Shown: positions 19,659 through 49,437, counted from the first letter of the stretch. The stretch: DNA of 64,000 nucleotides from Clostridia bacterium (GCA_028684095.1 JAQUGQ010000004.1:4937-68936); one strand, 5' to 3'. The notes: generated by a model not told the origin, from the letters alone. Translations and numbers: made by a program.

Positions 19659-20663
19659 ATGGAAAAAAAGGGTGTGCTCAGTACTCTAAAGTTTATATTT
19701 TTTACAACATTCTTATTGGTATTAATGTTTTCTGCAGTAGTAGTTACTGTATTAAACACATATAAACCTACATTGAGAGTGGTGTTAAATGATAAATTCA
19801 TTGGTTACTTTTCGAATGAAGAAGAATTTGAAGATGTATATAATACTCTAGTTTCAGAAAAAGAGCTAATTGATTCTAACGTTAAAGCATATTTAGATGC
19901 TGAACCAGTATTTACAACTTGTTATATAAGAGATAATCTTATTACTTCACAAAATGTATATACTAGTTTAAGAGCAGAACTAAAAACTGAATATACTATA
20001 TATAACGTTGCTATAAATGATGAAAAAAAAATGATATTTAATAGTCAAGATGAAGCAAATAAATATGTAACTAATTTAAAAAAGGAAGTTCCTAAAGTTA
20101 AATCTGAAGTTACAACAGAAAAAGTTTCTAATCTTGGTGAAATGACTTCTATAGAAGTGGCAGATAATATATTTAAAGATATAGTAAGTAGAAATAAACC
20201 AGTAATTGTTATACCTAAAGTTGTTATACCAAAAGCAACAACAACTAATGAAACTGTTTCAGTTGCAACAGCTAATGTATCAGCAGCACAAGGCGGAATA
20301 TGGCCTACAACTGCTAGGTATATCTCTTCTTCGTTTGGTTATAGAGGGGCATCTCTTCATACAGGTATAGATATAGCTGGTAGAAGTGGAGATCCAATAT
20401 ATGCATATAAATCTGGACTTGTAACATTTTCGGGTTGGGGCGGATCTTATGGTTATATGCTTAAAGTTGATCACGGTAATGGTATTACAACTTGGTATGC
20501 TCATTGTAGTAAATTATTAGTTAATGCTGGTGATTCTGTTGAAATGGGTCAAACAATTGCAAAAGAAGGTACAACTGGTAACTCAACTGGTAACCATTTA
20601 CACTTTGAGTTAAGAATAAACGGTACTGCTGTTAATCCATATGGATATATAATTGGCAGATAA
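19659..20663 (+). CDS. Membrane-anchored M23 (LytM) metallopeptidase
   Basis: An N-terminal TM segment and a C-terminal domain with HTGIDIAG, GYMLKVDHGNG and GNHLHFELRING motifs. Confidence 0.85.
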   Translation: MEKKGVLSTLKFIFFTTFLLVLMFSAVVVTVLNTYKPTLRVVLNDKFIGYFSNEEEFEDVYNTLVSEKELIDSNVKAYLDAEPVFTTCYIRDNLITSQNVYTSLRAELKTEYTIYNVAINDEKKMIFNSQDEANKYVTNLKKEVPKVKSEVTTEKVSNLGEMTSIEVADNIFKDIVSRNKPVIVIPKVVIPKATTTNETVSVATANVSAAQGGIWPTTARYISSSFGYRGASLHTGIDIAGRSGDPIYAYKSGLVTFSGWGGSYGYMLKVDHGNGITTWYAHCSKLLVNAGDSVEMGQTIAKEGTTGNSTGNHLHFELRINGTAVNPYGYIIGR

Positions 20664-21122: not shown

Positions 21123-21151
21123 TTGACAAAAAAATGTATATAAAATATAAT
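21123..21151 (+). promoter_or_regulatory. Sigma-A promoter of paralogue 1 (TTGACA-17-TATAAT)
   Basis: TTGACA at 21123-21128 and TATAAT at 21146-21151. Confidence 0.6.
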
Positions 21152-21215: not shown

Positions 21216-22526
21216 GTGAAAAGTAAAAAAGGTATATCATTAATTGTATTAGTAATAACAATAATAGTTATAATAATACTAGCAGGAGCAGTAATATTAA
21301 GCTTAGCAACTAATAATCCAATAGAATCAGCAAATGAAGCAACGTTTAAAACAAATGTAGCGGAATATAATTCAGAACTTGCAATAGCTATAGCAAATGA
21401 ATATTTACAAAACAGTTCTTTTGATTCAGCTACATTTGATGCAGGAGTATGGGATGGTACTGGAACTGGAACTGGAACAATAAAACAATATATAACAAGT
21501 ATACCTGAAGTAGATGCAGCAAAATTTGAAATACAATCTAGTAAGTTAGTTTATGTAGGAACAAATGTAACAGAACAAAACTGGGTTACAAGTATGGGTA
21601 TGGTAAATGGAGAAGTAACACCTCCAGAAGAAACAGGACTTGGATTAAATGTAATAGCAACAGATAATGTAACATTTGATGGAGAAGTAGCAGCACATAA
21701 CAATCCAATAATACCAAAAGGATTTATGGCAATAAATACTACTACAACATGGCCAACAGACTGGAATAATGGATTAGTAATAGAAGATGCAAGTGGAAAT
21801 CAATTTGTATGGGTACCAGTAGATGGAACAAATGTGCCATATGCAAAGTGGTGTACAACTAATATATCATATGCATCAACAACAGATGATAGTATACTAT
21901 TAGGTACTGTAGATGAAAATACACAAGTAACAAGTTATGGAGGATTCTATATAGCAAGATATGAATCAATGTTTGACTATAACTCAGGTAGTATAAGAGT
22001 AGCAAGTAAAAAGAGTACAAATAAGACAAGTTTTACAGATTGGTCATCAATAAGAAATGCAACATATAACGGATATTTATGGAACTATATAAATTATACA
22101 GATTCAAAATTATATGCAGAAAATATGGCAGCAAGCTATAGTTATGATGTATTAAAAGTTAAAAGTGGACTTGTAACAGGAACTGAGTGGGATACAGTAA
22201 TGAAATGGATACAAAATGCAAGCATAAGTGTAACAGATAGTAGAACATGGGGTAATCATAGTAATTCAACATCCCCAGCAGATATATCTGGATATTTTGA
22301 TTTACAAATATCTGGATTTAGTGAATATTGGAAAGTAAAAAACATATATGATTTAGCGGGAAATACATGGGAATGGACAAATGAAATCTATAGCTCATAC
22401 CGTGTCAATCGCGGAGGTAGCTACAACTCTAGTGGTAGTACTGGTCCAGTTGCTTATCGTTTCAACAACGTTGTTACTTTAGCTTACAGCGACAGAGGTT
22501 TCCGCACAGTGCTTTATATCCTGTAA
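21216..22526 (+). CDS. Pseudopilin-like N-terminal anchor fused to an FGE-sulfatase/SUMF1 (C-type-lectin fold) domain, paralogue 1
   Basis: A GTG start follows the SD ggggg. The N-terminus (KKGISLIVLVITIIVIIILAGAVILS) resembles the prepilin KG(F/I)(S/T)L(I/V)E... segment. FGE-domain motifs are present: YIARYE, LVTGTEWD, YDLAGNTWEWTNE, RVNRGGSY and RGFR. Confidence 0.8.
   Translation: MKSKKGISLIVLVITIIVIIILAGAVILSLATNNPIESANEATFKTNVAEYNSELAIAIANEYLQNSSFDSATFDAGVWDGTGTGTGTIKQYITSIPEVDAAKFEIQSSKLVYVGTNVTEQNWVTSMGMVNGEVTPPEETGLGLNVIATDNVTFDGEVAAHNNPIIPKGFMAINTTTTWPTDWNNGLVIEDASGNQFVWVPVDGTNVPYAKWCTTNISYASTTDDSILLGTVDENTQVTSYGGFYIARYESMFDYNSGSIRVASKKSTNKTSFTDWSSIRNATYNGYLWNYINYTDSKLYAENMAASYSYDVLKVKSGLVTGTEWDTVMKWIQNASISVTDSRTWGNHSNSTSPADISGYFDLQISGFSEYWKVKNIYDLAGNTWEWTNEIYSSYRVNRGGSYNSSGSTGPVAYRFNNVVTLAYSDRGFRTVLYIL
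22392..22526 (+). other. Variable-region-like 3' end of paralogue 1
   Basis: The composition switches to A-poor, GC-richer codons (cgc, agc, ttc, ctg). This segment is hypervariable relative to paralogue 2, whereas the 57 nt just before it are nearly identical. Confidence 0.5.
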
Positions 22527-22931
22527 CTACTTTGCACTGAAACTAGATTAAAAAAGGTACAATATGGATTAAAAAAAATACAAATAAATATGTTAAGAGA
22601 TAAAATAAGTTTTCTATCTTGCTTAAAAAGGGTATATTTTATTATGCTTTAGATAAAAATGCATTAGTTGTGGAAAATATTGTAAGTAGGATAAAAATAT
22701 GTTTTTCTATAAATGTGTGTAAGGTTGAATTTTCTCTTAATAGTTTAGAAAAATAAAAGAAGAAACTGAAACTAATAGAGTATTTAATTAACAATAAAAA
22801 AATTAAAATCTATGAAGTTAAAAAATATTTAAATGGATATATAGGTTATATGTGACATTTAATAATTAATACTATATAAATTTACAATTTATGTTGATAT
22901 AACTATATTATAACAATTTTTTGAAAATATA

Positions 22932-22959
22932 TTGACAAAAAAAATATATATAATATAAT
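22932..22959 (+). promoter_or_regulatory. Sigma-A promoter of paralogue 2
   Basis: TTGACA at 22932-22937 and TATAAT at 22954-22959, with a 16-nt spacer. Confidence 0.55.
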
Positions 22960-23025
22960 TTAATTGTTAGTTAATTTATATTGTAATTAGCATAGTTTTT
23001 TAAAAGAAAAATGGGGGTATTTTAA

Positions 23026-24312
23026 GTGAAAAGTAAAAAAGGTATATCATTAATAGTATTAGTAATAACAATAATAGTTATAATAATACTAGCAGGAGCA
23101 GTAATATTAAGCTTAGCAACTAATAATCCAATAGAATCAGCAAATGAAGCATTATTTAAAACAAATGTAGATGCATATAATTCAGAGCTTACTCTGGCTA
23201 TATCCAATCAACATTTACAGGATCAATCATTTGATCCAACTACATTTGATAAAGGGGTATGGAATGGTGGAACTATAGGAGAAACAATAAAAAAATATAT
23301 ACCAAGTATAACAGTAGCAGATGGATTAAAATTTGAAATACAAGATAGTAAGTTGGTATATGTAGGAACAAATGAAACAGAACAAGACTGGTTTACAAGT
23401 ATGAGTATGACAAGTGAAGAAGAAACAGGACTTGGATTAGATGTAATAGCAACGGATAATGTAACATTTGATGGAGAGGCAGCTGCATATAATAATCCGA
23501 TAATACCGAAAGGATTTATGGCAATAGAAGATGGAGCAGTATGGCCAACAGATTGGAATGAAGGACTAGTAATAGAAGATGCAAGTGGAAACCAATTTGT
23601 ATGGGTACCAGTAGATGGAACAAATGTATCATATGCAAAGTGGTGTACAATAGGATTCTCTTATGCAAGTACAACAGATGATAGTATACTATCAGGTACG
23701 GTAGATGAAAATACACAAGTAACAAATTATGGTGGCTTTTATATAGCAAGATATGAATCAATGTTTGACTATAACTCAGGAAGTATAAGAGTAGCAAGTA
23801 AAGTTAGTACAAATAAAACAATTTCAAGTTGGACAAGAGATAATTCAAATACAGGATATTTATGGAACTATATAGATTATACAGATGCAAAAACATATTC
23901 AGAAAATATGGGAGCAAGCTATAGTTATGATGCATCAAAAGTTAAAAGTGGACTTGTAACAGGAACACAGTGGGATACTGCAATGAGATGGATTAGTAAT
24001 AATTCAGGACCAAGTGTAACAGATAGTAGAACATGGGGTAATCACTATGATTCAACATCCCCAGCAAATGTATCTGGATTTGGAAGTTTACAAATATCAG
24101 GATTTAATAATAATTGGAAAGCTAAAAATATATATGATTTAGCAGGAAATACATGGGAATGGACAAATGAAATCTATAACTCTGTCCGTGTCAGTCGCGG
24201 AGGCAGCTGCAACGATAGTGGTAGTACTTACCCAGCTGCTTTTCGTTACGACGTAGTTGCTACTAGTACCAACTACCACATAGGTTTCCGTGTAGGGCTT
24301 TATGTATTGTAG
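23026..24312 (+). CDS. Pseudopilin-like anchor fused to an FGE-sulfatase/C-type-lectin-fold domain, paralogue 2
   Basis: Same architecture as 21216-22526, with YIARYE, LVTGTQWD, YDLAGNTWEWTNE, RVSRGGSC and IGFR motifs. Confidence 0.8.
   Translation: MKSKKGISLIVLVITIIVIIILAGAVILSLATNNPIESANEALFKTNVDAYNSELTLAISNQHLQDQSFDPTTFDKGVWNGGTIGETIKKYIPSITVADGLKFEIQDSKLVYVGTNETEQDWFTSMSMTSEEETGLGLDVIATDNVTFDGEAAAYNNPIIPKGFMAIEDGAVWPTDWNEGLVIEDASGNQFVWVPVDGTNVSYAKWCTIGFSYASTTDDSILSGTVDENTQVTNYGGFYIARYESMFDYNSGSIRVASKVSTNKTISSWTRDNSNTGYLWNYIDYTDAKTYSENMGASYSYDASKVKSGLVTGTQWDTAMRWISNNSGPSVTDSRTWGNHYDSTSPANVSGFGSLQISGFNNNWKAKNIYDLAGNTWEWTNEIYNSVRVSRGGSCNDSGSTYPAAFRYDVVATSTNYHIGFRVGLYVL
24178..24312 (+). other. 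Variable-region-like 3' end of paralogue 2
   Basis: The counterpart of 22392-22526, with the same compositional switch. Confidence 0.5.
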
Positions 24313-24532
24313 CTATTTTCCACTGAAATTACATTAGAAAAGGCACAAAATGGATTATAAAAAATAAATATGTAAGAGATAAGATAAATTAACAATTGGA
24401 CGGGTTTTAAAATTAGAATAGTTTTTTAGCATGGTGGAAAACTTGAAATGTAGATAATTAATACTACATAAGTTTTCTAGGCTCATTGTCAATAGTTGGG
24501 TTATAAATTATTAAAAATTGATTAGAGTAACA

Positions 24533-40083: not shown

Positions 40084-40172
40084 AAGAAGAAAATCAGTTT
40101 AGTTCAATAATTGTACAAGCAAGTAAAATTGTTAGGATTAATAATATAATATTTTGATTGGGGTGTATATAT

Positions 40173-40259
40173 ATGTATAGAAGTGTGGTTTTAAAAACTA
40201 TATCAGTAATTGTTATAATGTCTATGGTAATAAATTTGATTCCTCTTAGTGTATATGGA
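40173..40259 (+). other. Predicted Sec signal peptide of the RHS protein
   Basis: The sequence is MYRSVVLKTISVIVIMSMVINLIPLSVYG/KEN, with a basic n-region, a hydrophobic core and a small-residue cleavage context. Confidence 0.6.
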
Positions 40260-43200
40260 AAAGAAAATACTGCTATAAGCACTAAAAAAGAGGATAAAAT
40301 TGTAACAAATACAGAGACTAAAGGGAAAGTAATTGATGAAATAATTGATAAAAGAGAAAGGAATATAAAATATTTTTATCTAAATAATAATACTGTTGAG
40401 GCAGCAATTTATCCAAATGCAGTTCATTATATGCAAGATGGAAAGTGGATAGATATAGATAATAGTTTATCTGAAATAGATGATACAGATGGACAAAAGA
40501 TAGGCGAAAATAAATCAAATAGTTTCAAAGTTAAATTTGCAAAAGAAGCTACAGATAACAAACTAATTAGTATTAAAAGTGATAAAATGGATATAAAATG
40601 GTCACTTGAAGGAGCAGAAACAGCACAAATGCAAACTAATTCACTTGCAGAAGATTTAAATGTTTTGAACAAAAAAGAAGATAAAACATTATTAAAAAAC
40701 ATTTCATCAAGTGTAATATATACGGATATAATGAAAAATGTAGATATATCATATGATATTGTGTCAGAAACTGTAAAAGAAAATATTATTTTAAAAACAG
40801 TTGATGCAGCAGAAAATAAATTTATATTCAATTTAGATATTGGCGATTTAGAAGCTAAATTAAATATAGACAAAAGTATATCAATATATAATTCTAAAAA
40901 TGAATTAGTATCAAAAATTGATGCACCATTCATGTATGATTCGAAACTTGAATATAGTGATGCAGTAGATGTTCTGCTTACTAAAAATAATAAAGAATAT
41001 ACATTGGAAATTAAACCTAATGAAGAATGGCTTAATAATCCAGAAAGGGTATTTCCAGTTAAAATAGACCCAACTGTAAATACATCACTATATTATCAGG
41101 ATATTAAGGATACATATATATATGATGGAGATTATAATAATCCAACAAGATATCAAGCTCATATAGTAAGAGCTGGCGGAGGAATTAGTAAAATTTTTAG
41201 GTCATTAATAAAATTTACACTTCCAACTTTAAATGCTGGGGATCAAGTAATTGATGCACAACTTAATTTATGTAATTACCCTGATACAGAAGAATGGAAT
41301 CCTTGGACAGGACCATTACAAATAAATGTCCATAAAGTAACTAGTGATTGGCAACAAGAAAGCGCTTATTGGTCAAATACTGCAAATATTTATGATCCTA
41401 AAATTGTAGATTACATGACATACCAATATGATGCAAGTAATTCAATGAAACAAAATGCTTGGAACATTACATCAATAGTGAAAGATTGGTATGTAACAGG
41501 AAATAATTACGGATTAATGCTAAAAGAAAATACTGAAGCAATAACAGGACATAATGAAGCATACTTTTTGTCTGCAGATACAACTGCCGCATATTATTTA
41601 AATTATAGACCGGTTGTAACTATTACATATCGTAATCAAACAGGATTAGAAAATTATTGGAGTTACCATAACCAAACAATAGGAAGAGCAGGGACAAGTT
41701 CTATTAATGATTATAACGGCAACCTTGTGTTAACTCATGGTGATGCTGCAACTCCTGGCAACCGTATGCCTGTTTCAATAAACCACGTATTTAATACAAA
41801 TGATAAAAATAAAGATATAGGATTTGGACCTGGATGGAGATTAAATATATCCCAAATGGTTAGTTTAGAGACTATAGGAAGTACACAATATGCAAAGTAT
41901 ATTGATGAAGATGGAACTGCTCACTATTTTTTAAAACAAGGTACAACCAATACATATCTTGATGAAGACGGATTAGGATTAACATTAACATATAATTCAG
42001 ATACAACCTTTACAATGAAAGATAAAGGAGATAATGTATTAACTTTTGAAAAGAAGGTAGTGTCGGGTAGTGATTTATGGCACTTAAATAAGATTACTGA
42101 TGCTAATGGTAATTCAATTAATATAACATTTTTAGCTGGATATCCTAATAATTTTTATATTGACAAGGTAACAGATGGTGCAGGAAGTAAAATTACATTT
42201 GGCTGGGCATATGGATACTTAAATGTAATGATAGATCAGAACTCTAAGGTATTAACTTATGGATATGATGCTAATTGGAAACTAACATCAATCACATATC
42301 CAGATAGTAAACAATCAATATATACATATGATACAAATAGTCTAATGACTAGTGCAAAAAATATTGATAATTCACACGTTGATTATTCATATAATGTAGG
42401 AATGCCATATAGAATAAATACAGTAAAAGAATATAGTACTGCTAATGAACTTGGAAATAGCTTAAGTTTTGTATATGGCAATAATGCAACAACATTCACA
42501 GATAATAAAGGATTCAGTAATACATATTCATTTACTAATGCAGGTCATGCAGTAAGCATCTCAGATTTTGGTAATAATACGAATAATATTAATAATGCAT
42601 ATGGAAAGATGTATAAATATGGTACATCAGGAGGTGAGAATAATAAATTAAAGCTTGAGTCTAAATTAATGACACCAGTAATAAATAGAGTTATAAATTC
42701 TAGTGGTGAGGCAGATGGAAATTGGACGCATTGGTATTGGGGTGTAAATAATGGCTCAATATCAATGACAAACACTCAATCATATTTTGGAAGTAGATCA
42801 ATTAAAGTAGTAGCTAATGGCAATAATTCGACATCTAGAATGTATGGATATCAATGGGCTACATTAGAAAAAGGAAAAACATATACTTTATCAGCATATG
42901 TAAAAACTGAAGGTATTACAAACAATAACGGTGGTGGAGCGATGCCTTTTATTTACTATTATTCACCAACGGGTACTAAGTCGGTTGATGCTACATCAGT
43001 AAATGGAACATCAGATTGGAAAAAATATAGTTGTACATTTACTTATTCTACAGATGCAACAAGCGATGTGGTTATAGCGATGGGAATCAAGACTGAAAAT
43101 GGAACAGCATATTTTGATGGTGTACAACTAGAAGAAGGAGAAACTGCAAATACATATAACTTAATAGAAAATTCTGGTTTTGATAATGGACTTACAAGCT

Positions 43201-46200
43201 GGATAAGAAACTCAGACTGTAATATGACAAATGATAATGTTGTATCAATTCCAACAGGTAATGCAGTCAAAATAACAGGGGAATCAACTAAACGTAAAAA
43301 CATCTGCCAAAATGTTAAAATTTCTGGTAAAAAAGGAGATGTGTTTTCATTATCTGGTTGGGTAAAAAGTAACTCAGTTGCACTAAGTGCACCAAGAGCA
43401 AATAGTATTACAGCAGGGATATGCAGGTTAGATGGTACTTTTCAATGGGTAGATGTCAGTATGAATCCAGATAGTAATACATGGCAATATTCATCAAATG
43501 AATTTGTAGTAGATAGTGACTATAGTTACATAGACATATATATACTATATTATTATAATTCAAATGAAGTATATTTTGATAATATAGGACTTTTCAAAGA
43601 TGATTTTGGACAAAGTTATACATATGATAAAAACGGAAATTTAATATCATCACAAGATATGGCAAAGAAAAATTCATCGATGCAGTATAACGGAAAAAAT
43701 GAATTGTTAAAACAAACTGATCCAAAAGGTGGAAGTTTTACTTATGAATATGACTCAAAAGTAAAAAATAGATTGTTAGTAGCAACAAACAATTCAAAAA
43801 TAAAATATTCATTAGAATACGATGGATATGGTAATACAATAAGTACAACAGTAAATAATACAGATAAAGTTTCAACAACAGTTGTACCAGGTAAAACATA
43901 TCATATAAAATCAAAGAGTAGTGGATTATATATGGATGCTGATAATTGGAGTACGGCAAATGGGACCAATGTACAACAATATCAATTTCATGGTGGAACA
44001 AATCAGCAATGGAAAGCATATGATGCCGGAGATGGATACTACTATTTTAAACCTATTTATTCAGATAATATAACACTTGATACATCAAGTACAACTAATA
44101 ATATTCAGCTTTGGGCTCTTCATGGTGGTGATAACCAGAAATGGAAATTAGAAAAAAATTCTGATGATTCATTTAAAATAATAGTTAAAAGTCAAGAGCA
44201 AACAAATTCTGTAACAGTAGCGGGAGATTCAAAAGTAAATTGTGGAAATATTGGGCAAGAAAAATATGAGAATAAAGAAAGTCAAAGCTTCTATTTTGAA
44301 GAGGTAGGAGTAGATAATTCCATAGATAAATCCATTATTGAATCAGGTGAAGTATTCTATATTAAGTCTAAAAGCAGTGGTTTGTATTTAGATTACGCTA
44401 AAGATTTAAATGGAAATATATTAAGTGATGCAAATGGTGTATATATAGCACAAAGAGAATATAATGCATCAAATTCGCAATTGTGGAGAATATCTAGAAG
44501 AGAAAATGGAACATATAAATTAGTACCTTTAGCTAGTGATACAGGAAGAGCTTTAACGGTATCTGGGAATGTAAATGAAAACAATAGACTCGTTGAGATG
44601 TGGTCATACCATGAAGCAGCACCAGAACAAAATTGGGTAATAACTAAAAAAATAGATGATACATATAGTATTATGTCTAATAGTACACAAAAATATTTGA
44701 CAATATTAAATAATTCGATATTGCCCGAAGCAACAATGGTAATATATAGTTATACTGGTACAGCAAATCAACAATGGTATTTGGAACCAGCTAATATGGT
44801 AAATATAGAAGATACAGCTACATATAAAATTAAGAATAAAAACAGTGGATTGTATGTTGGTGTGAAAGATTCAGGTGACTTTAATGGTACAAATGTAGAA
44901 CAGGTTGCAGCAAGTGATAATTTATCACAACAATGGCAATTTGTAGATTTAAAGAATGGTTATTATAAGCTTATTGCAAAACATAGTGCTACTGAGAGAG
45001 TTATGGATATAACAGATGGAAGTACCGCAGATGGAACTAATGTACAGCTATATCAATCAACTGGGACAAATGGGCAACAGTGGGAAGTAGTACCTATTGG
45101 TAATGGAGCATTTAGTTTAAAACCAAGAAATTGTAGTGGTAAAGAAGCTTTAGATTTATATTGTGGATTGACTGCACCAGGTACAAACATACAGATATGG
45201 AGTTCTCATGGAGAAGGACCTCAACAATTCTATTTAGAGAAGGTAAGTGGACCTACAAGTTCATATATCGAATCAAAAGCTTCATATACAACAGATGGAA
45301 GGTTTTTAAATAAAATAACAGATGCAAGAGGTAAAGAAGTAAGTTATAACTATAACTTTAATGAAACAACAGATACAGGATCAGGTACACTTGCAAGTGT
45401 AGTAGATGCAAAAGGAACAACAACATCATATGAATATGATAATTTAGATAGAATGACAAGTGTAACTTCAGTAACTGATGGAAAAACATATACAAATAGT
45501 TATACATATGTTAATGATAAACTATCAAGTATACTACATAATGGTTTTAATTTAAATTTTGTATACGATAACTTCGGTAATACCAAAGAAGTAAAAGTTG
45601 AAAACCAAACATTAGTAACAAACAACTATGATACAAATAACGGAAACTTAAATAGTGTGTTATATGGAAATAATCAAACAATATCTTATGTATATGATAG
45701 ATTTTCAAGAGTATCTACAAAAACAGGAACTGATGGCACATATAACTATGTTTATGATGCAAAAGGAAATTTAGCAGTAACAAAAGATAATGTAAACAAT
45801 GTAACATACAACTATACATATGATTTAGCAGATAGGCCAGTAAAACTACAAGGAAGTAATGGATACAGTTCACAATATAAATATGACAATAACAGTAATA
45901 TAAACAACATTACATATAACTTTGGTAGTTTATCTAACGCTACAAGTTATGCATATGATAGTGATAACAAAATAACTAATATAAAATGGGATAATGATAA
46001 ATATACAATGTATAACTATGATAAATTAAGCAGATTACAAGATAAGTATTTAAAAAGTGGAACAAATTCATATAAGACAAGTATGACATATGTAAACGAT
46101 GAAACAAATTCATTGAAAACAACAACATTACTAAGTAGTATAAAAAATGGAACAGAAGCGGAAATACTGTATACTTATGATGATAATGGAAATATAGATA

Positions 46201-47630
46201 CAATATCTAAAGATTTTAATTTAAGACAAAGATATTACTATGATGGATTAAATCAATTAGTAAGAGAAAATAATATAGATTTAAACCAAACAATTAGTTA
46301 TACTTACGATACAGGAGGAAATTTAACAAGTAAAGACATATATGAATATACAACAGATATAAGTCTAACAGGACTTACAAAATTGGATACAAAAACTTAT
46401 ACATATGATACAGTATGGAAAGATAAATTAACAAATTATAATGGAAAAGATATAACATACGATAATATAGGAAATCCTTTAACATATGATGGTAATACAT
46501 ATACATGGCAAAATGGGAGACAATTAGCAGGAATAAGTAAAGAAGGTACTAATATATCATATAAGTATAACGATAGTGGAATACGTACACAAAAAACAGT
46601 AAATGGAGTAACAACTAATTACTATCTTGAAGGTGATAAAGTAATATATGAAACAACAGGAACAAACACAACATATTACACATATGATGGAGAAAGTAAT
46701 TTAGTAGGTTTCAAATATAATAACACACAATACTATTATGTAAGAAATGGTCAAGGAGATATAACAGGAATACTTGACAATAACCTAACTAATGTGATAT
46801 CATATACATATGACACATGGGGTAATTTAGTATCAATAAAAGATGCAAGTGGAACAGATGTAACAAGTGATACTACAAGTATAGGAAACATAAACCCATA
46901 CAGATATAGAGGTTATAGATACGATAATGAAACAGGTATGTACTACTTACAAAGTAGATATTACAATCCTGAAACTTGTCGCATGTTAAATGCAGATTCT
47001 ATTTCAGGTCAAGCAGGAGATATACTTTCTACAAACATGTATTCATATTGCAAGAATAATCCTGTAAATTATTGTGATCCAAGTGGACATTTTTCATGGG
47101 CAATTCCGTTTTTAACATCAGCAATAGCTTCAATTGTTACATTATTAGCACCAGTTATTGTAACTGCATTAGTAGTTGTTATAGCTACAGTTGTAACTAT
47201 TGCACTAGGTGATGCTGTTGCAAATGCAATAAAAAAAGATATAGAAAAGAAAGATAAAATCATGAATGGTCCGCATACTGTGTATAGGTTAGTTGATCCT
47301 GATACTAAAGAGACAAAATACGTGGGTAGGACTACTAATCCGGTAGCAAGAGAGCAAGTTCATAAAGCAACACCCGGAAAAACTAATCTAAATTTTGTTC
47401 CAGTTGCTTCTGGACTTACTAGAGAGCAAGCAAGGGGAATGGAACAACAGTTAATCTTGGCATATCAAACAACAAATTTGGTTGACAGACTTAGTGGTGC
47501 TGGAAATAAGATTAATGGGATATCGTCAAAAAATCAAAAATGGGGAATATATATGGAAGCAACTAGAAGTGTTTCTTCTACAGCATATAATCTAATTGAG
47601 GATGAGATATTATATTATTTTATGCAATAG
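40173..47630 (+). CDS. Secreted RHS/YD-repeat polymorphic toxin with lectin modules and a GIY-YIG-like C-terminal nuclease (2485 aa from the ATG at 40173)
   Basis: A Sec-type signal peptide is followed by a DNRLRE-like module (SLIKFTLPTLNAGDQVIDAQLNL). Two CBM4/9-like modules and three ricin-type beta-trefoils (QxW repeats) follow. There are dozens of YxYDxxGN YD repeats, and an RHS core ending PYRYRGYRYDNETGMYYLQSRYYNPETCRML...NPVNYCDPSGH. Confidence 0.9.
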   Translation: MYRSVVLKTISVIVIMSMVINLIPLSVYGKENTAISTKKEDKIVTNTETKGKVIDEIIDKRERNIKYFYLNNNTVEAAIYPNAVHYMQDGKWIDIDNSLSEIDDTDGQKIGENKSNSFKVKFAKEATDNKLISIKSDKMDIKWSLEGAETAQMQTNSLAEDLNVLNKKEDKTLLKNISSSVIYTDIMKNVDISYDIVSETVKENIILKTVDAAENKFIFNLDIGDLEAKLNIDKSISIYNSKNELVSKIDAPFMYDSKLEYSDAVDVLLTKNNKEYTLEIKPNEEWLNNPERVFPVKIDPTVNTSLYYQDIKDTYIYDGDYNNPTRYQAHIVRAGGGISKIFRSLIKFTLPTLNAGDQVIDAQLNLCNYPDTEEWNPWTGPLQINVHKVTSDWQQESAYWSNTANIYDPKIVDYMTYQYDASNSMKQNAWNITSIVKDWYVTGNNYGLMLKENTEAITGHNEAYFLSADTTAAYYLNYRPVVTITYRNQTGLENYWSYHNQTIGRAGTSSINDYNGNLVLTHGDAATPGNRMPVSINHVFNTNDKNKDIGFGPGWRLNISQMVSLETIGSTQYAKYIDEDGTAHYFLKQGTTNTYLDEDGLGLTLTYNSDTTFTMKDKGDNVLTFEKKVVSGSDLWHLNKITDANGNSINITFLAGYPNNFYIDKVTDGAGSKITFGWAYGYLNVMIDQNSKVLTYGYDANWKLTSITYPDSKQSIYTYDTNSLMTSAKNIDNSHVDYSYNVGMPYRINTVKEYSTANELGNSLSFVYGNNATTFTDNKGFSNTYSFTNAGHAVSISDFGNNTNNINNAYGKMYKYGTSGGENNKLKLESKLMTPVINRVINSSGEADGNWTHWYWGVNNGSISMTNTQSYFGSRSIKVVANGNNSTSRMYGYQWATLEKGKTYTLSAYVKTEGITNNNGGGAMPFIYYYSPTGTKSVDATSVNGTSDWKKYSCTFTYSTDATSDVVIAMGIKTENGTAYFDGVQLEEGETANTYNLIENSGFDNGLTSWIRNSDCNMTNDNVVSIPTGNAVKITGESTKRKNICQNVKISGKKGDVFSLSGWVKSNSVALSAPRANSITAGICRLDGTFQWVDVSMNPDSNTWQYSSNEFVVDSDYSYIDIYILYYYNSNEVYFDNIGLFKDDFGQSYTYDKNGNLISSQDMAKKNSSMQYNGKNELLKQTDPKGGSFTYEYDSKVKNRLLVATNNSKIKYSLEYDGYGNTISTTVNNTDKVSTTVVPGKTYHIKSKSSGLYMDADNWSTANGTNVQQYQFHGGTNQQWKAYDAGDGYYYFKPIYSDNITLDTSSTTNNIQLWALHGGDNQKWKLEKNSDDSFKIIVKSQEQTNSVTVAGDSKVNCGNIGQEKYENKESQSFYFEEVGVDNSIDKSIIESGEVFYIKSKSSGLYLDYAKDLNGNILSDANGVYIAQREYNASNSQLWRISRRENGTYKLVPLASDTGRALTVSGNVNENNRLVEMWSYHEAAPEQNWVITKKIDDTYSIMSNSTQKYLTILNNSILPEATMVIYSYTGTANQQWYLEPANMVNIEDTATYKIKNKNSGLYVGVKDSGDFNGTNVEQVAASDNLSQQWQFVDLKNGYYKLIAKHSATERVMDITDGSTADGTNVQLYQSTGTNGQQWEVVPIGNGAFSLKPRNCSGKEALDLYCGLTAPGTNIQIWSSHGEGPQQFYLEKVSGPTSSYIESKASYTTDGRFLNKITDARGKEVSYNYNFNETTDTGSGTLASVVDAKGTTTSYEYDNLDRMTSVTSVTDGKTYTNSYTYVNDKLSSILHNGFNLNFVYDNFGNTKEVKVENQTLVTNNYDTNNGNLNSVLYGNNQTISYVYDRFSRVSTKTGTDGTYNYVYDAKGNLAVTKDNVNNVTYNYTYDLADRPVKLQGSNGYSSQYKYDNNSNINNITYNFGSLSNATSYAYDSDNKITNIKWDNDKYTMYNYDKLSRLQDKYLKSGTNSYKTSMTYVNDETNSLKTTTLLSSIKNGTEAEILYTYDDNGNIDTISKDFNLRQRYYYDGLNQLVRENNIDLNQTISYTYDTGGNLTSKDIYEYTTDISLTGLTKLDTKTYTYDTVWKDKLTNYNGKDITYDNIGNPLTYDGNTYTWQNGRQLAGISKEGTNISYKYNDSGIRTQKTVNGVTTNYYLEGDKVIYETTGTNTTYYTYDGESNLVGFKYNNTQYYYVRNGQGDITGILDNNLTNVISYTYDTWGNLVSIKDASGTDVTSDTTSIGNINPYRYRGYRYDNETGMYYLQSRYYNPETCRMLNADSISGQAGDILSTNMYSYCKNNPVNYCDPSGHFSWAIPFLTSAIASIVTLLAPVIVTALVVVIATVVTIALGDAVANAIKKDIEKKDKIMNGPHTVYRLVDPDTKETKYVGRTTNPVAREQVHKATPGKTNLNFVPVASGLTREQARGMEQQLILAYQTTNLVDRLSGAGNKINGISSKNQKWGIYMEATRSVSSTAYNLIEDEILYYFMQ
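43881..45243 (+). other. Three tandem ricin-B-type (beta-trefoil) lectin domains embedded between YD-repeat blocks
   Basis: The QxW-type motifs recur: NQQWKAY, DNQKWKL, SQLWRIS, EQNWVIT, NQQWYLE, SQQWQFV, GQQWEVV and PQQFYLE. Each domain opens with a YxIKxKxSGLY(L/M/V) strand. Confidence 0.8.
45819..46528 (+). repeat. Homology segment A (copy in the main rhs gene) shared with the orphan cassette
   Basis: Near-identical to 48728-49437 at a constant offset of 2909 nt. Confidence 0.85.
46566..46991 (+). repeat. Homology segment B (copy in the main rhs gene) shared with the orphan cassette
   Basis: Near-identical to 49853-50278 at an offset of 3287 nt. It ends inside the RHS core just before the toxin tips diverge. 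Confidence 0.85.
47076..47090 (+). other. RHS core C-terminal DPxG(H/L) autoproteolysis-type motif (DPSGH)
   Basis: Reads NPVNYCDPSGHF, in the position of the PxxxxDPxGL demarcation of RHS toxins. Confidence 0.7.
47094..47231 (+). other. Hydrophobic Ala/Val/Thr/Ile-rich segment between the RHS core and the toxin domain
   Basis: The sequence is SWAIPFLTSAIASIVTLLAPVIVTALVVVIATVVTIALGDAVANAI. Confidence 0.7.
47268..47627 (+). other. GIY-YIG (URI)-like nuclease toxin domain
   Basis: TVYRLVDPDTKETKYVGRTTNPVAREQVH supplies the GIY...YIG...R...H elements. It is followed by LTREQARGMEQQLILAY (catalytic Glu context) and an NKINGIS Asn. Confidence 0.6.
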
Positions 47631-47646
47631 AAAGGGGAATAAATAA

Positions 47647-48483
47647 ATGGGAGCATGGGGAGTTAAAATATACCAAGATGATGTAGCACTAGATGTGAAA
47701 GAAAAATATATTGATTTGCTCAAAAGAGGAAAATCAAATAAGAGTGCTACTGATAAAATAATTAAAGAGAATGAAGATATAATAAAAGATGAAGAAGATG
47801 CACCAGTATTTTGGTTTTCGTTAGCAAATATACAATGGGATTATGGTATATTATTGCCACAAGTTAAAGAAAAAGCAATAGAATATATAAAAAGTGAAAC
47901 TAACTTAGAAAAGTGGAAAGAAGAAGTCACAGAAAAAGATTATATAAAAAGAAAAAAAGTTCTAGAAGAATTAGAAAGTAAACTTAATTCTAACATGCCG
48001 GAAGAAAAAAAAATAACACCATATAAAATATATACATGTCCGTGGAATATAGGAGATATATTCGCATATAAAATTAAAGGAGATTTATATAAAAACCATT
48101 ATATAGTTTTTGTAAAAGTAGGAAATGATAAATATGCTCCAGCTAGTACTTGTCCTTTGGTATATGTATATAATAAAATATTTAATAATATATTAACAAT
48201 TGAAGAATTAAAAAATATACAATATTTGCCTCAAGCCTATAGACCATCTGCTTATAAAGATCAATACAAAGATTTATTATATAAGTGTTTGATAGGAATA
48301 GAATTTAAAGATAAAAAATTATTAGATAATTTAGTATATTTGGGGAATAATACAGAAATAAATATGCCAGATAATGAAATATGTAATATCTATGATATGG
48401 GTAATAGATCTCTTTGCTTTTTAAAAAAATTTGAAGAAGAACAAATAAAAAGTTATGATGCATGGAAAGGAATAGATTATTAA
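47647..48483 (+). CDS. Putative cognate immunity protein
   Basis: It starts 17 nt after the toxin stop, with the SD aagggga. The N-terminus (MGAWGVKIYQDDVALD) is reminiscent of the DUF4259-type GxWGxxxxDND.A.D signature. Confidence 0.6.
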   Translation: MGAWGVKIYQDDVALDVKEKYIDLLKRGKSNKSATDKIIKENEDIIKDEEDAPVFWFSLANIQWDYGILLPQVKEKAIEYIKSETNLEKWKEEVTEKDYIKRKKVLEELESKLNSNMPEEKKITPYKIYTCPWNIGDIFAYKIKGDLYKNHYIVFVKVGNDKYAPASTCPLVYVYNKIFNNILTIEELKNIQYLPQAYRPSAYKDQYKDLLYKCLIGIEFKDKKLLDNLVYLGNNTEINMPDNEICNIYDMGNRSLCFLKKFEEEQIKSYDAWKGIDY

Positions 48484-48727: not shown

Positions 48728-49437
48728 TATGATTTAGCAGATAGGCCAGTAAAACTACAAGGAAGTAATGGATACAGTTCACAATATAAATATGACAATA
48801 ACAGTAATATAAACAACATTACATATAACTTTGGTAGTTTATCTAATGCTACAAGTTATGCATATGATAGTGATAACAAAGTAACAAATGTAAAATGGGA
48901 TAATGATAAATATACAATGTATAATTATGATAAATTAAGCAGATTACAAGATAAGTATTTAAAAAGCTCATCAAATTCATATAAGACAAGTATGACATAT
49001 GTAAACGATGAAACAAATTCATTGAAAACAACAACATTACTAAGTAGTATAAAAAATGGAACAGAAGCGGAAATACTGTATACTTATGATGATAATGGAA
49101 ATATAGATACAATATCTAAAGATTTTAATTTAAGACAAAGATATTACTATGATGGATTAAATCAATTAGTAAGAGAAAATAATATGGATTTAAACCAAAC
49201 AATTAGTTATACTTATGATACAGGAGGAAATCTAACAAGTAAAGATATATATGAATATACAACAGATATAAGTCTAACAGGACTTACAAAATTGGATACA
49301 AAAACTTATACATATGATACAGTATGGAAAGATAAATTAACAAATTATAATGGAAAAGATATAACATATGATAATATAGGAAATCCATTAACATATGATG
49401 GTAATACATATACATGGCAAAATGGGAGACAACTTGC
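48728..49437 (+). repeat. Homology segment A (orphan copy)
   Basis: See 45819-46528. Confidence 0.85.

Follow-up and report, generated by a model that had tools for sequence, protein, structure and literature searches.

A 64,000-nt stretch of a metagenome-assembled genome (MAG) of a Clostridia bacterium (GCA_028704735.1, JAQWEW01; 26.5% GC), hereafter named the window, was analysed around two adjacent paralogous genes located in the region 21216-24312. Judged by homology and by mutational footprint, both genes read as targets of a diversity-generating retroelement (DGR), with the variable region (VR) at the 3' end of each gene. The locus itself is not a complete DGR, because neither an intact reverse transcriptase (RT) gene nor the template repeat (TR) nor intact accessory genes were found in the window. 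The sequence of the spacer between the genes shows the local cassette to be dead and the VRs orphaned from it, and we lean towards the view that these VRs are no longer diversified. The two products share the same layout, which consists of a hydrophobic helix at the N-terminus, a middle domain and, at the C-terminus, a domain resembling the FGE-sulfatase and C-type lectin (CLec) folds.

The last 135 nt of the two genes were compared codon by codon. They differ at 38 sites, distributed 13/16/9 over the three codon positions (29 of them at positions 1 or 2), and 26 of the 45 codons are affected. Eight variable pairs are of the type NNC/NNC (agc/aac, tac/gtc, tac/tgc, ttc/tac, aac/gac, tac/aac, agc/tac and gac/cac) and five of the type NNT/NNT, and the 57 nt before positions 22392 and 24178 show 4 differences (22336, 22337, 22343 and 22358). 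The composition also changes abruptly in the tails. The GC content is 0.31-0.32 in the gene bodies versus 0.45-0.48 in the tails, whereas adenine makes up 0.42 of the former and 0.21-0.24 of the latter. At third codon positions, C increases from 4-5% to 36% and A drops from 46-55% to 14%. Arginine is encoded by AGA in 82% of the cases in other genes of the window and in all nine codons of the bodies, versus CGT or CGC in eight of nine tail codons; the share of TAC goes from 0-13% elsewhere to 67% in the tails, and that of AAC from 15% to 86%. The codon use of the tails is thus foreign to the host, with avoidance of adenine in the scaffold codons of the VR. The gene bodies (21216-22391 versus 23026-24177) show 63/45/55 differences by codon position and 80 non-synonymous against 33 synonymous codon differences, a pattern suggestive of selection that is relaxed or diversifying across the ectodomain as a whole. 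Tail and body do not differ significantly in codon-position bias (Fisher p=0.25), and the density of changes is 28% in the tail versus 14% in the body. What is diagnostic of the tails is how densely they have changed, their switch in codons and where the variable sites are placed, not the codon-position bias.

An initial annotation of the window had proposed this footprint, and its outline was borne out: it had described two open reading frames (ORFs) ending in an FGE/CLec-type domain, the same eight NNC/NNC pairs and a switch to A-poor, GC-richer codons that are rare elsewhere, and all three descriptions agree with our counts. Some of its figures had to be corrected, since it gave 39 tail differences (30 at positions 1 or 2), three NNT/NNT pairs and two differences in the preceding 57 nt. 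The bias towards codon positions 1 and 2 that it had stressed is present in the tail, but it is not specific to it.

Homologues of the two genes were collected by a profile search of GTDB species genomes, which yielded 78 loci of uncultured Clostridia, with gut MAGs accounting for many of these. The gut relatives include Clostridium sp. CAG:440 and CAG:465, which we take to be members of the order TANB77. In five loci (L031, L033, L034, L041 and L077) an intact RT ORF lies directly downstream of the family member, and in each of them the 3' end of the gene forms a 112-131-nt direct repeat with a copy located just after the RT. The mismatches between both copies fall on adenines of the RT-proximal copy in 20 of 20, 15 of 16, 11 of 13, 13 of 13 and 12 of 13 cases, respectively. 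Since homologues adjoin intact cassettes with adenine-specific VR/TR mismatches, this is a real family of DGR targets. In L041 the gene order is target, MutS-like gene (MSL, of the MutS_I type), bAvd, RT and TR, and the Pfam matches of the three ORFs are MutS_I (1.8e-9), bAvd (6.6e-18) and RVT_1 (7.6e-20). Intact accessory genes were also found in L034, L046 and L087; the latter is a short JGI contig that carries an intact VR, MSL, bAvd and RT of a sister lineage, with the TR end lying outside the contig. In the intact relatives the TR starts within ~30-70 nt after the stop codon of the RT.

Conserved motifs flank the TR of these elements. The sequence (G)GGGTAAATC(A/G)AAG is found immediately 5' of the TR in each of the five intact DGRs (L041 3422-3451, L033 2941-2970, L077 12192-12221, L034 4550-4579 and L031 3552-3581), and most of them carry CTCTAATA(T)TATT...AGATTATATATTTTAAGGAATATA after the TR, L041 diverging past CTCTAATA. 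These motifs may be parts of the DGR RNA that lie outside the TR. Partial cassettes were also observed in relatives from gut MAGs (L046 11473-12213, L051 1150-1581 and L065 10938-11528), in the form of MSL plus bAvd lacking the RT, MSL alone, or bAvd plus an N-terminal stub of the RT; decay of the cassette seems to be common in this target family.

The adenine register was analysed in seven VRs from this genome with a common register, both window genes included (hereafter group A). The 105-nt core of these VRs was aligned free of gaps to the L041 TR, which was used as a stand-in for the lost template. Group A follows a pattern of ~20 codons of the form nnC, nnT or nAC between fixed CGT, GGA, GGC, CCA and GCT codons. 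Hypervariable columns (at least three alleles) coincide with adenines of the L041 TR in 20 of 22 cases, as compared with 17 of the 83 remaining columns (Fisher 1.5e-9). The same tendency was observed for the window genes alone, in which 17 of 27 differing sites lie on L041-TR adenines versus 20 of 78 identical sites (p=8.6e-4), and 42 of the 55 invariant columns of group A match the L041 TR. Compared in pairs, the seven VRs diverge on average by 46% at TR-adenine sites and by 10.9% at the remaining sites, while the corresponding figure for the gene bodies is 11.9%, and in some pairs the scaffold diverges less than the body (4.4% versus 8.2% in W2-L3a; 5.9% versus 15.7% in L4-L5a). A 23-nt segment at the 3' end of the VR is identical in six of the seven, synonymous sites included, in genes whose bodies differ by ~12%; the exception is W1, the VR of window gene 1, whose 3' end is unlike that of the other members. 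Both in the target family and in real DGRs, the stop codon is followed by a CACTGAA motif. Folding of the region after the VR gave z-scores of -0.9 to +0.8, with no signal of a hairpin or cruciform. The variation thus falls mostly on the sites that correspond, via the homologous L041 TR, to template adenines. This evidence of adenine specificity is indirect, because the TR and RT that wrote the window VRs were not found. We infer a lost template close to ATCTATAGCTCTAACCGTGTCAATCGCGGAGGCAACTACAACAATAATGGTAGTACTAACCCAGCTGCTTATCGTAACAACAACAATAATACTAATGCCAACAACAACATAGGTTTCCGTGTAGGGCT, in which a C/T wobble should be allowed.

Structural modelling agrees with this assignment. Pfam FGE-sulfatase (PF03781) was detected on the C-terminal halves of both proteins, with E values of 8e-5 (gene 1, just below the gathering score) and 1e-7 (gene 2, the only one to pass it). 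Foldseek searches with an AlphaFold2 (AF2) model (mean pLDDT 71) retrieved the FGE-like proteins CarF, PvdO and OvoA, as well as the two DGR targets with solved structures, TvpA (2y3c, E 1.5e-3) and Mtd (1yu2, 1yu0), at modest TM-scores of 0.25-0.5. The model therefore predicts that the VR occupies the C-terminal end of a CLec/FGE-sulfatase fold. The proposal that the last ~130 nt are DGR variable regions is in this way backed by the homologous DGRs, by the adenine register and by the predicted fold.

The 499-nt spacer between the window genes is a deletion remnant of a cassette of this kind, of which ~250 nt of fragments survive (Table 1). The fragments were compared by tblastn to intact sister-lineage proteins. 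Concatenated cassette remnants, used as a query against a protein database, retrieved the sister-lineage MSL P0242/P0246, bAvd P0250 and the RT halves P0241/P0245/P0247, the last of these being the C-terminal half with the YLDD motif. The bAvd P0250 and the 65%-identical target P0012 each list an NCBI contig of 57,214 bp as the longest, which suggests that they may share a contig. The MSL fragment (22619-22750) is 40% identical to the L041 MSL ORF. The RT fragment (22775-22876) retains about the last 30 codons and the native stop (22853-22855), and is 30-36% identical over 50 aa to the five intact RTs. Beyond that stop, the promoter-like site of gene 2 stands where intact relatives carry the TR. 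The peptide GIFYYALDKN, encoded in the spacer, was considered as a degenerate YxDD motif or as an RT N-terminus and rejected, since comparison with intact cassettes assigned it to the MutS-like gene.

Remnants of the same cassette were found elsewhere in the MAG. Locus L006 contains, in the correct order, the start of MSL (79% identity across 43 aa), part of bAvd (95% across 20 aa) and a motif-2 piece of the RT (69% across 59 aa, E 1e-19); the latter had first been flagged by a search with intact cassettes (E 3e-9), and a 50-aa piece of it matched Pfam RVT_1 with E 0.07. An MSL start fragment is present in L085. An alignment of six spacers indicated that they are nested deletion derivatives of one cassette, and the spacer of the window and two of L006 have both the internal MSL deletion and the MSL-to-RT junction in common, with 88-95% identity. 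The initial annotation had reported no RT or TR in the window; this holds for intact genes, but the MSL and RT fragments of the spacer had been missed. It had also left the element as remote, lost or of an unfamiliar kind: the local copy is now shown to be lost, an unfamiliar element need not be invoked, and a remote one may exist.

A live RT or template was searched for in the window and in 219 kb of the MAG (nine loci, about one sixth of a genome that may measure 1.3 Mb or more). Within the window, a blastn search (word size 7) and an ungapped scan for adenine-only mismatches returned the two VRs matching each other and no TR. The same scan of the 219 kb gave no TR, the best candidates being other VRs with at least 14 non-adenine mismatches. 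No intact RT ORF was found in the window, and none in the nine loci, where the two fragments described above, in the window spacer and in L006, were the sole RT sequences. Likewise, the window locus carries fragments and no intact bAvd or MSL beside an RT. The pattern TCGCGGAGGNAGCTNCAACNNTAGTGGTAGTACT, which fixed AGT where the TR probably has AAT, gave no match in genome and viral contigs, and neither did the corrected pattern ANTGGTAGTNCTNNYCCAGCTGCTTNTCGT in viral and metagenome contigs. A further pattern, GGTTTCCGTGTAGGGCT, matched a single high-GC phage and was rejected as a chance hit. The protein matches of the remnant query, among which sister proteins were retrieved with only 20 aa matching, included no MSL, Avd or RT of either record of this MAG (PHD15 or PHO88). 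A search of 5.8 billion proteins with the L041 RT returned only gut RTs with at least 76% identity, a result that is uninformative for the RT of this MAG. Relatives of the sister-lineage RT P0241 were limited to L087 and distant gut DGRs in the metagenome collection, and none was found in the viral collection.

The two window genes belong to a large family. At least 28 paralogues were counted in the MAG from the window, the nine loci read and the protein list. They occur singly or in tandem arrays of two to five or more, interspersed with housekeeping genes (the spoIIIA operon and cysS, ligA and topA, rpoB, gatCAB and argS), each copy having a putative strong promoter to itself. All of them have a conserved body (...NIYDLAGNTWEWTNE) followed by divergence over the last ~45 codons, in which the scaffold R-GG-Y---G---PAA-R---------FR--LY-L is kept. 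The GC content of the tails ranges from 0.30 to 0.51, a range that runs from fresh to eroded VRs, and the GC-rich VRs (44-51%) contrast with bodies of 30-32%. A twin MAG record (PHO88; proteins MDD2376xxx) carries the same two window proteins (P0001 and P0008), each of which forms a single-member cluster at 90% identity. Two VRs are broken, by a frameshift in P0038 and by a stop codon in P0050, where a premature TAA lies inside the VR (L086 12590-12750) and the VR resumes in frame past it. The C-terminus of P0038 was considered as a translated TR and discarded, as it corresponds to a VR with a 1-nt frameshift in a run of G.

The only paralogue that differs between the two MAG records is P0005 (PHD15_04390; L006 10001-11296), whose counterpart P0006 (PHO88_03520) has the same VR and a stretch of the body identical to window gene 2. 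P0006 looks like a mosaic, produced either by gene conversion between paralogues or by a polishing or assembly artefact. A 500-aa member of the family is encoded at L006 13720-15222; it shares the N-terminal ~130 residues, has a different and longer middle region, and ends in a divergent Gly-rich C-terminus (...FLRGGGYGGTTGVGAFNFNCQNGGPSAMGFRPVLVLSGTL) with a weak FGE-sulfatase match.

In the mechanism that we propose, the RT would have copied an AAC/AAT-rich TR into cDNA with misincorporation opposite the template adenines, and the mutagenic cDNA would have overwritten the VRs (mutagenic retrohoming). Retrohoming of this kind would hold the third base together with the CGT, GGC, CCA and GCT codons, would let the first two bases of ~20 codons vary, and would produce an A-poor, GC-rich segment with codons foreign to the genome. 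The cassette, which in related genomes follows the target directly downstream with the MutS-like gene, bAvd, RT and TR, has decayed here, with loss of the TR. The three units that share one deletion junction have VRs that are 68-73% identical, in spite of their far more similar spacers, and about half of their template-adenine sites differ. From a shared dead-cassette junction combined with unlike VRs, some diversification in trans probably continued after the death of the local cassette. Several points speak against the explanation as a whole, orphaned VRs included. The argument for the trans phase could be undone if recombination or gene conversion reshuffled the spacers. An intact cassette could be located on another or an unbinned contig, since contigs of the MAG end at paralogues (L003 and L085). 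The A-poor, GC-rich VRs, the 23-nt 3' end and the intact genes behind consensus promoter sites fit recent or continuing homing as well as they fit fossilisation. Moreover, the adenine test relies on the TR of family members that are 28-36% identical in protein, and the RT remnant of the window is lysine-rich and in a first, larger search matched distant RTs with E values of 0.25-0.4.

In a rival reading, a remote intact DGR, elsewhere in the genome or on an unbinned contig, a phage or a plasmid of the community, would still diversify group A, one or both window genes included, in trans through the conserved 3' end; the remnant beside the window genes would then be one of several dead copies of the cassette. 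We consider this possible, although rather unlikely. Remote targets have been documented for cellular DGRs, with seven in Treponema, and complementation in trans has been reported in the Bordetella phage (PMC5758913). The uneroded GC excess and A-avoidance of the VRs in so AT-rich a genome, the identical 3' end, the pairs with scaffolds less divergent than their bodies, the single junction with very different VRs and an assembly that breaks at repeats can all be accommodated by a live remote element. Against such an element stand the lack of TR-like sequence in the 219 kb read, the TR-derived patterns that found no counterpart in genome, metagenome and viral collections, and the absence of PHD15 or PHO88 cassette proteins among the matches of the remnant query. 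The identity of P0001 and P0008 in both MAG versions and their single-member clusters, the broken VRs, a mean scaffold divergence similar to that of the bodies and the deviating 3' end of W1 point in the same direction. A retroelement might also be dispensed with altogether, if ordinary mutation and diversifying selection acted on a ligand-binding surface while gene conversion kept the scaffold uniform. The non-synonymous excess of the bodies, a tail codon-position bias that does not differ significantly from theirs and mosaic paralogues such as P0006, which resembles a P0005/P0008 chimera, are in line with such a process. Nevertheless, selection at the amino acid level fails to account for the synonymous switch from AGA to CGT/CGC or the rise of third-position C from 4% to 36%, and it leaves unexplained the hypervariable columns on adenines of a real TR, the adjoining cassette remnants and the intact DGRs beside homologues, so that we regard it as very improbable. 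Even less credit can be given to an assembly artefact in which the tails are chimeric or the collapsed consensus of a repeated family. The large number of near-repeats, the contigs that end inside paralogues and the patch that distinguishes P0005 from P0006 between the two MAG versions could raise this suspicion; however, both ORFs are complete and lie with distinct flanks (rpsO, hisS) within a 170-kb contig, their proteins are identical in two MAG records, and the same tail architecture is present in independent JGI, ENA and Logan assemblies.

Two more speculative readings were considered. A single unseen DGR, on another contig or a mobile element, might service a set of dispersed and independently promoted pilin-like CLec genes, numbering from ten to nearly thirty, in a ~1.3-Mb genome, with dead cassettes marking the seeding of targets; this is improbable, and if true it would be by far the largest set of trans-acting DGR targets known. 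Alternatively, the RT may have been lost and the pre-diversified VR library be used through recombination between paralogues, which would represent a transition from retroelement-based to cassette-based surface variation.

The initial annotation had called the two proteins pilin-anchored. The N-terminus reads MKSKKG-ISLIVLVITIIVIIILAG..., and the AF2 model predicts helices at residues 9-32 and 35-65, that is, a long N-terminal helix with a hydrophobic first half, a shape that is not specific to pilins. The putative cleavage site KKG|ISLIVLV has Val at position +5 instead of Glu, and the class III signal-peptide motif G|F(T/S)L(I/L)E is absent. Searches with the prepilin models N_methyl and TIGR02532 gave no matches at E<=10, only weak FliL-like transmembrane matches being obtained, and no pilus genes were found among ten scanned ORFs of the window. 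Pilin anchoring is thus not established, given the unmatched prepilin hidden Markov models (HMMs) and the missing Glu at +5. On the other hand, JGI labels some homologues PilE or PulG, and the gut order TANB77 has a conserved pilus cluster with pilin-like proteins (PMC11680825). A pilin-like N-terminus, as predicted from the model, is a reasonable lead.

In mechanism, the footprint is that of a classical DGR with targets of the CLec/FGE class. Wu et al. (2018, NAR 46:11) defined Architecture D as the DGRs that contain an MSL, including that of Legionella pneumophila, and described the co-occurrence of MSL with avd. By gene content, L041, L034 and L087 resemble this architecture, as they carry a small MutS_I-like gene together with bAvd and RT; the target is likewise of the FGE-sulfatase/CLec class, with the VR at the extreme C-terminus, and it is from such a cassette that the remnants of the window descend. 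The difference is that the window retains ~250 nt of fragments lacking a TR, whereas the intact relatives carry the TR after the RT. With TvpA of Treponema denticola the family shares a CLec/FGE surface protein with a C-terminal VR and one element serving dispersed paralogous targets, but Treponema has an intact RT and TR, an HRDC accessory gene and lipoprotein targets, eight of them as compared with at least 28 here, where no RT was found. The founding DGR, Mtd/Brt of Bordetella phage BPP-1, has in common with the window genes an AAC-rich template, a VR that takes up the final ~130 nt of a CLec fold and scaffold codons that avoid adenine; it differs in being phage-borne, with a single target and with an initiation of mutagenic homing (IMH) site and a hairpin that are experimentally defined, whereas no hairpin signal was obtained here.

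Expansion of DGR loci by intragenomic duplication has been described in Thiohalocapsa PB-PSB1 (bioRxiv 10.1101/2023.09.22.558884), where some loci lack RT or TR and the authors ask about "inactive remnants". Nine loci and 15 targets were counted there, the RTs are intact, diversification at the population level was demonstrated and the targets are linked to conflict systems; in contrast, the present MAG has more targets in a much smaller genome, proteins of surface type and no intact RT seen. As for modular pilins and DGR targets of pili, such as PilB of S. sanguinis (PMC8179133) and the targets in Bacteroides type V pili (bioRxiv 10.1101/2024.11.15.621889), the likeness lies in the N-terminal hydrophobic helix, the long helix and the appended binding module. 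The window proteins differ from pilins in having ISLIV after the cleavage Gly, no Glu at +5 and no match to prepilin HMMs, and type V pili are unrelated in sequence.

Three things are new here: a clostridial target family not characterised before, which combines a membrane or pilin-like N-terminus, a ligand-binding CLec/FGE-like C-terminus and an MSL-type cassette; the growth of this family to ~28 copies in a small genome; and the fossil cassettes next to the targets. Since DGR surveys begin at the RT, targets whose element has died or moved are uncatalogued. The VR footprint can nevertheless be recognised when neither RT nor TR is present, from the codon switch, the NNC/NNT variation and the adenine register of a homologous TR, and cassette remnants can corroborate it. 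The series from fresh to eroded VRs offers a way to ask how long DGR-written sequence lasts after the loss of the element, and whether a fixed library of pre-diversified binding proteins is retained by cells. Should a remote live element exist, no larger set of DGR targets would have been described.

Table 1. Coordinates of the two target genes, their variable regions, promoter-like sites and cassette remnants in the window
Feature	Coordinates	Strand	Description
Promoter-like site, gene 1	21123..21151	+	TTGACA, 17 nt, TATAAT; 12/12 consensus; putative
Paralogue 1	21216..22526	+	436 aa, GTG start; PHD15_02425, MDD4386602.1 (identical)
VR1	22386..22513	+	~128 nt; approximate ends, set by homology to the L041/L033 VR/TR boundaries
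Post-VR conserved non-coding spacer, gene 1	22527..22608	+	Contains CACTGAA; follows the VR in many paralogues
MSL remnant	22619..22750	+	61% identity over 44 aa to sister MSL P0242, E 1e-11; internally deleted, no ORF
RT C-terminus remnant	22775..22876	+	68% identity over 34 aa to P0247, E 1.5e-9; motifs 1-7 deleted
Promoter-like site, gene 2	22932..22959	+	Sigma-70 consensus 12/12; putative
Paralogue 2	23026..24312	+	428 aa, GTG start; MDD4386601.1 (identical); same architecture as paralogue 1
VR2	24172..24299	+	~128 nt; approximate; 3' end CGTGTAGGGCTTTATGTATTGTA, identical in 6/7 group A paralogues
Post-VR spacer, gene 2	24313..24479	+	Same module as that found before the start codon of MSL in L006 and L085; cassette beyond deleted

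The pair of genes is placed between rpsO (upstream) and hisS/aspS (downstream), the names of the flanking genes having been assigned by eye. An Rfam scan of the window detected tRNA only. Upstream of rpsO, an ORF at 19659-20663 (+) resembles M23-family peptidases, with an N-terminal membrane anchor and HxxxD and HLH-type motifs, as judged by eye. A 2490-aa ORF (40158-47630, +) contains DUF6531, several ricin-type beta-trefoil lectin domains and RHS repeats, an architecture of polymorphic toxins, and is followed by two ORFs with no Pfam match (47647-48483 and 48917-50962). Further downstream, the ORF at 57376-61683 (+) encodes a single-module protein similar to non-ribosomal peptide synthetases, with condensation, AMP-binding and PP-binding domains and a terminal reductase, and the next ORF (61625-63637, +) encodes a histidine kinase.

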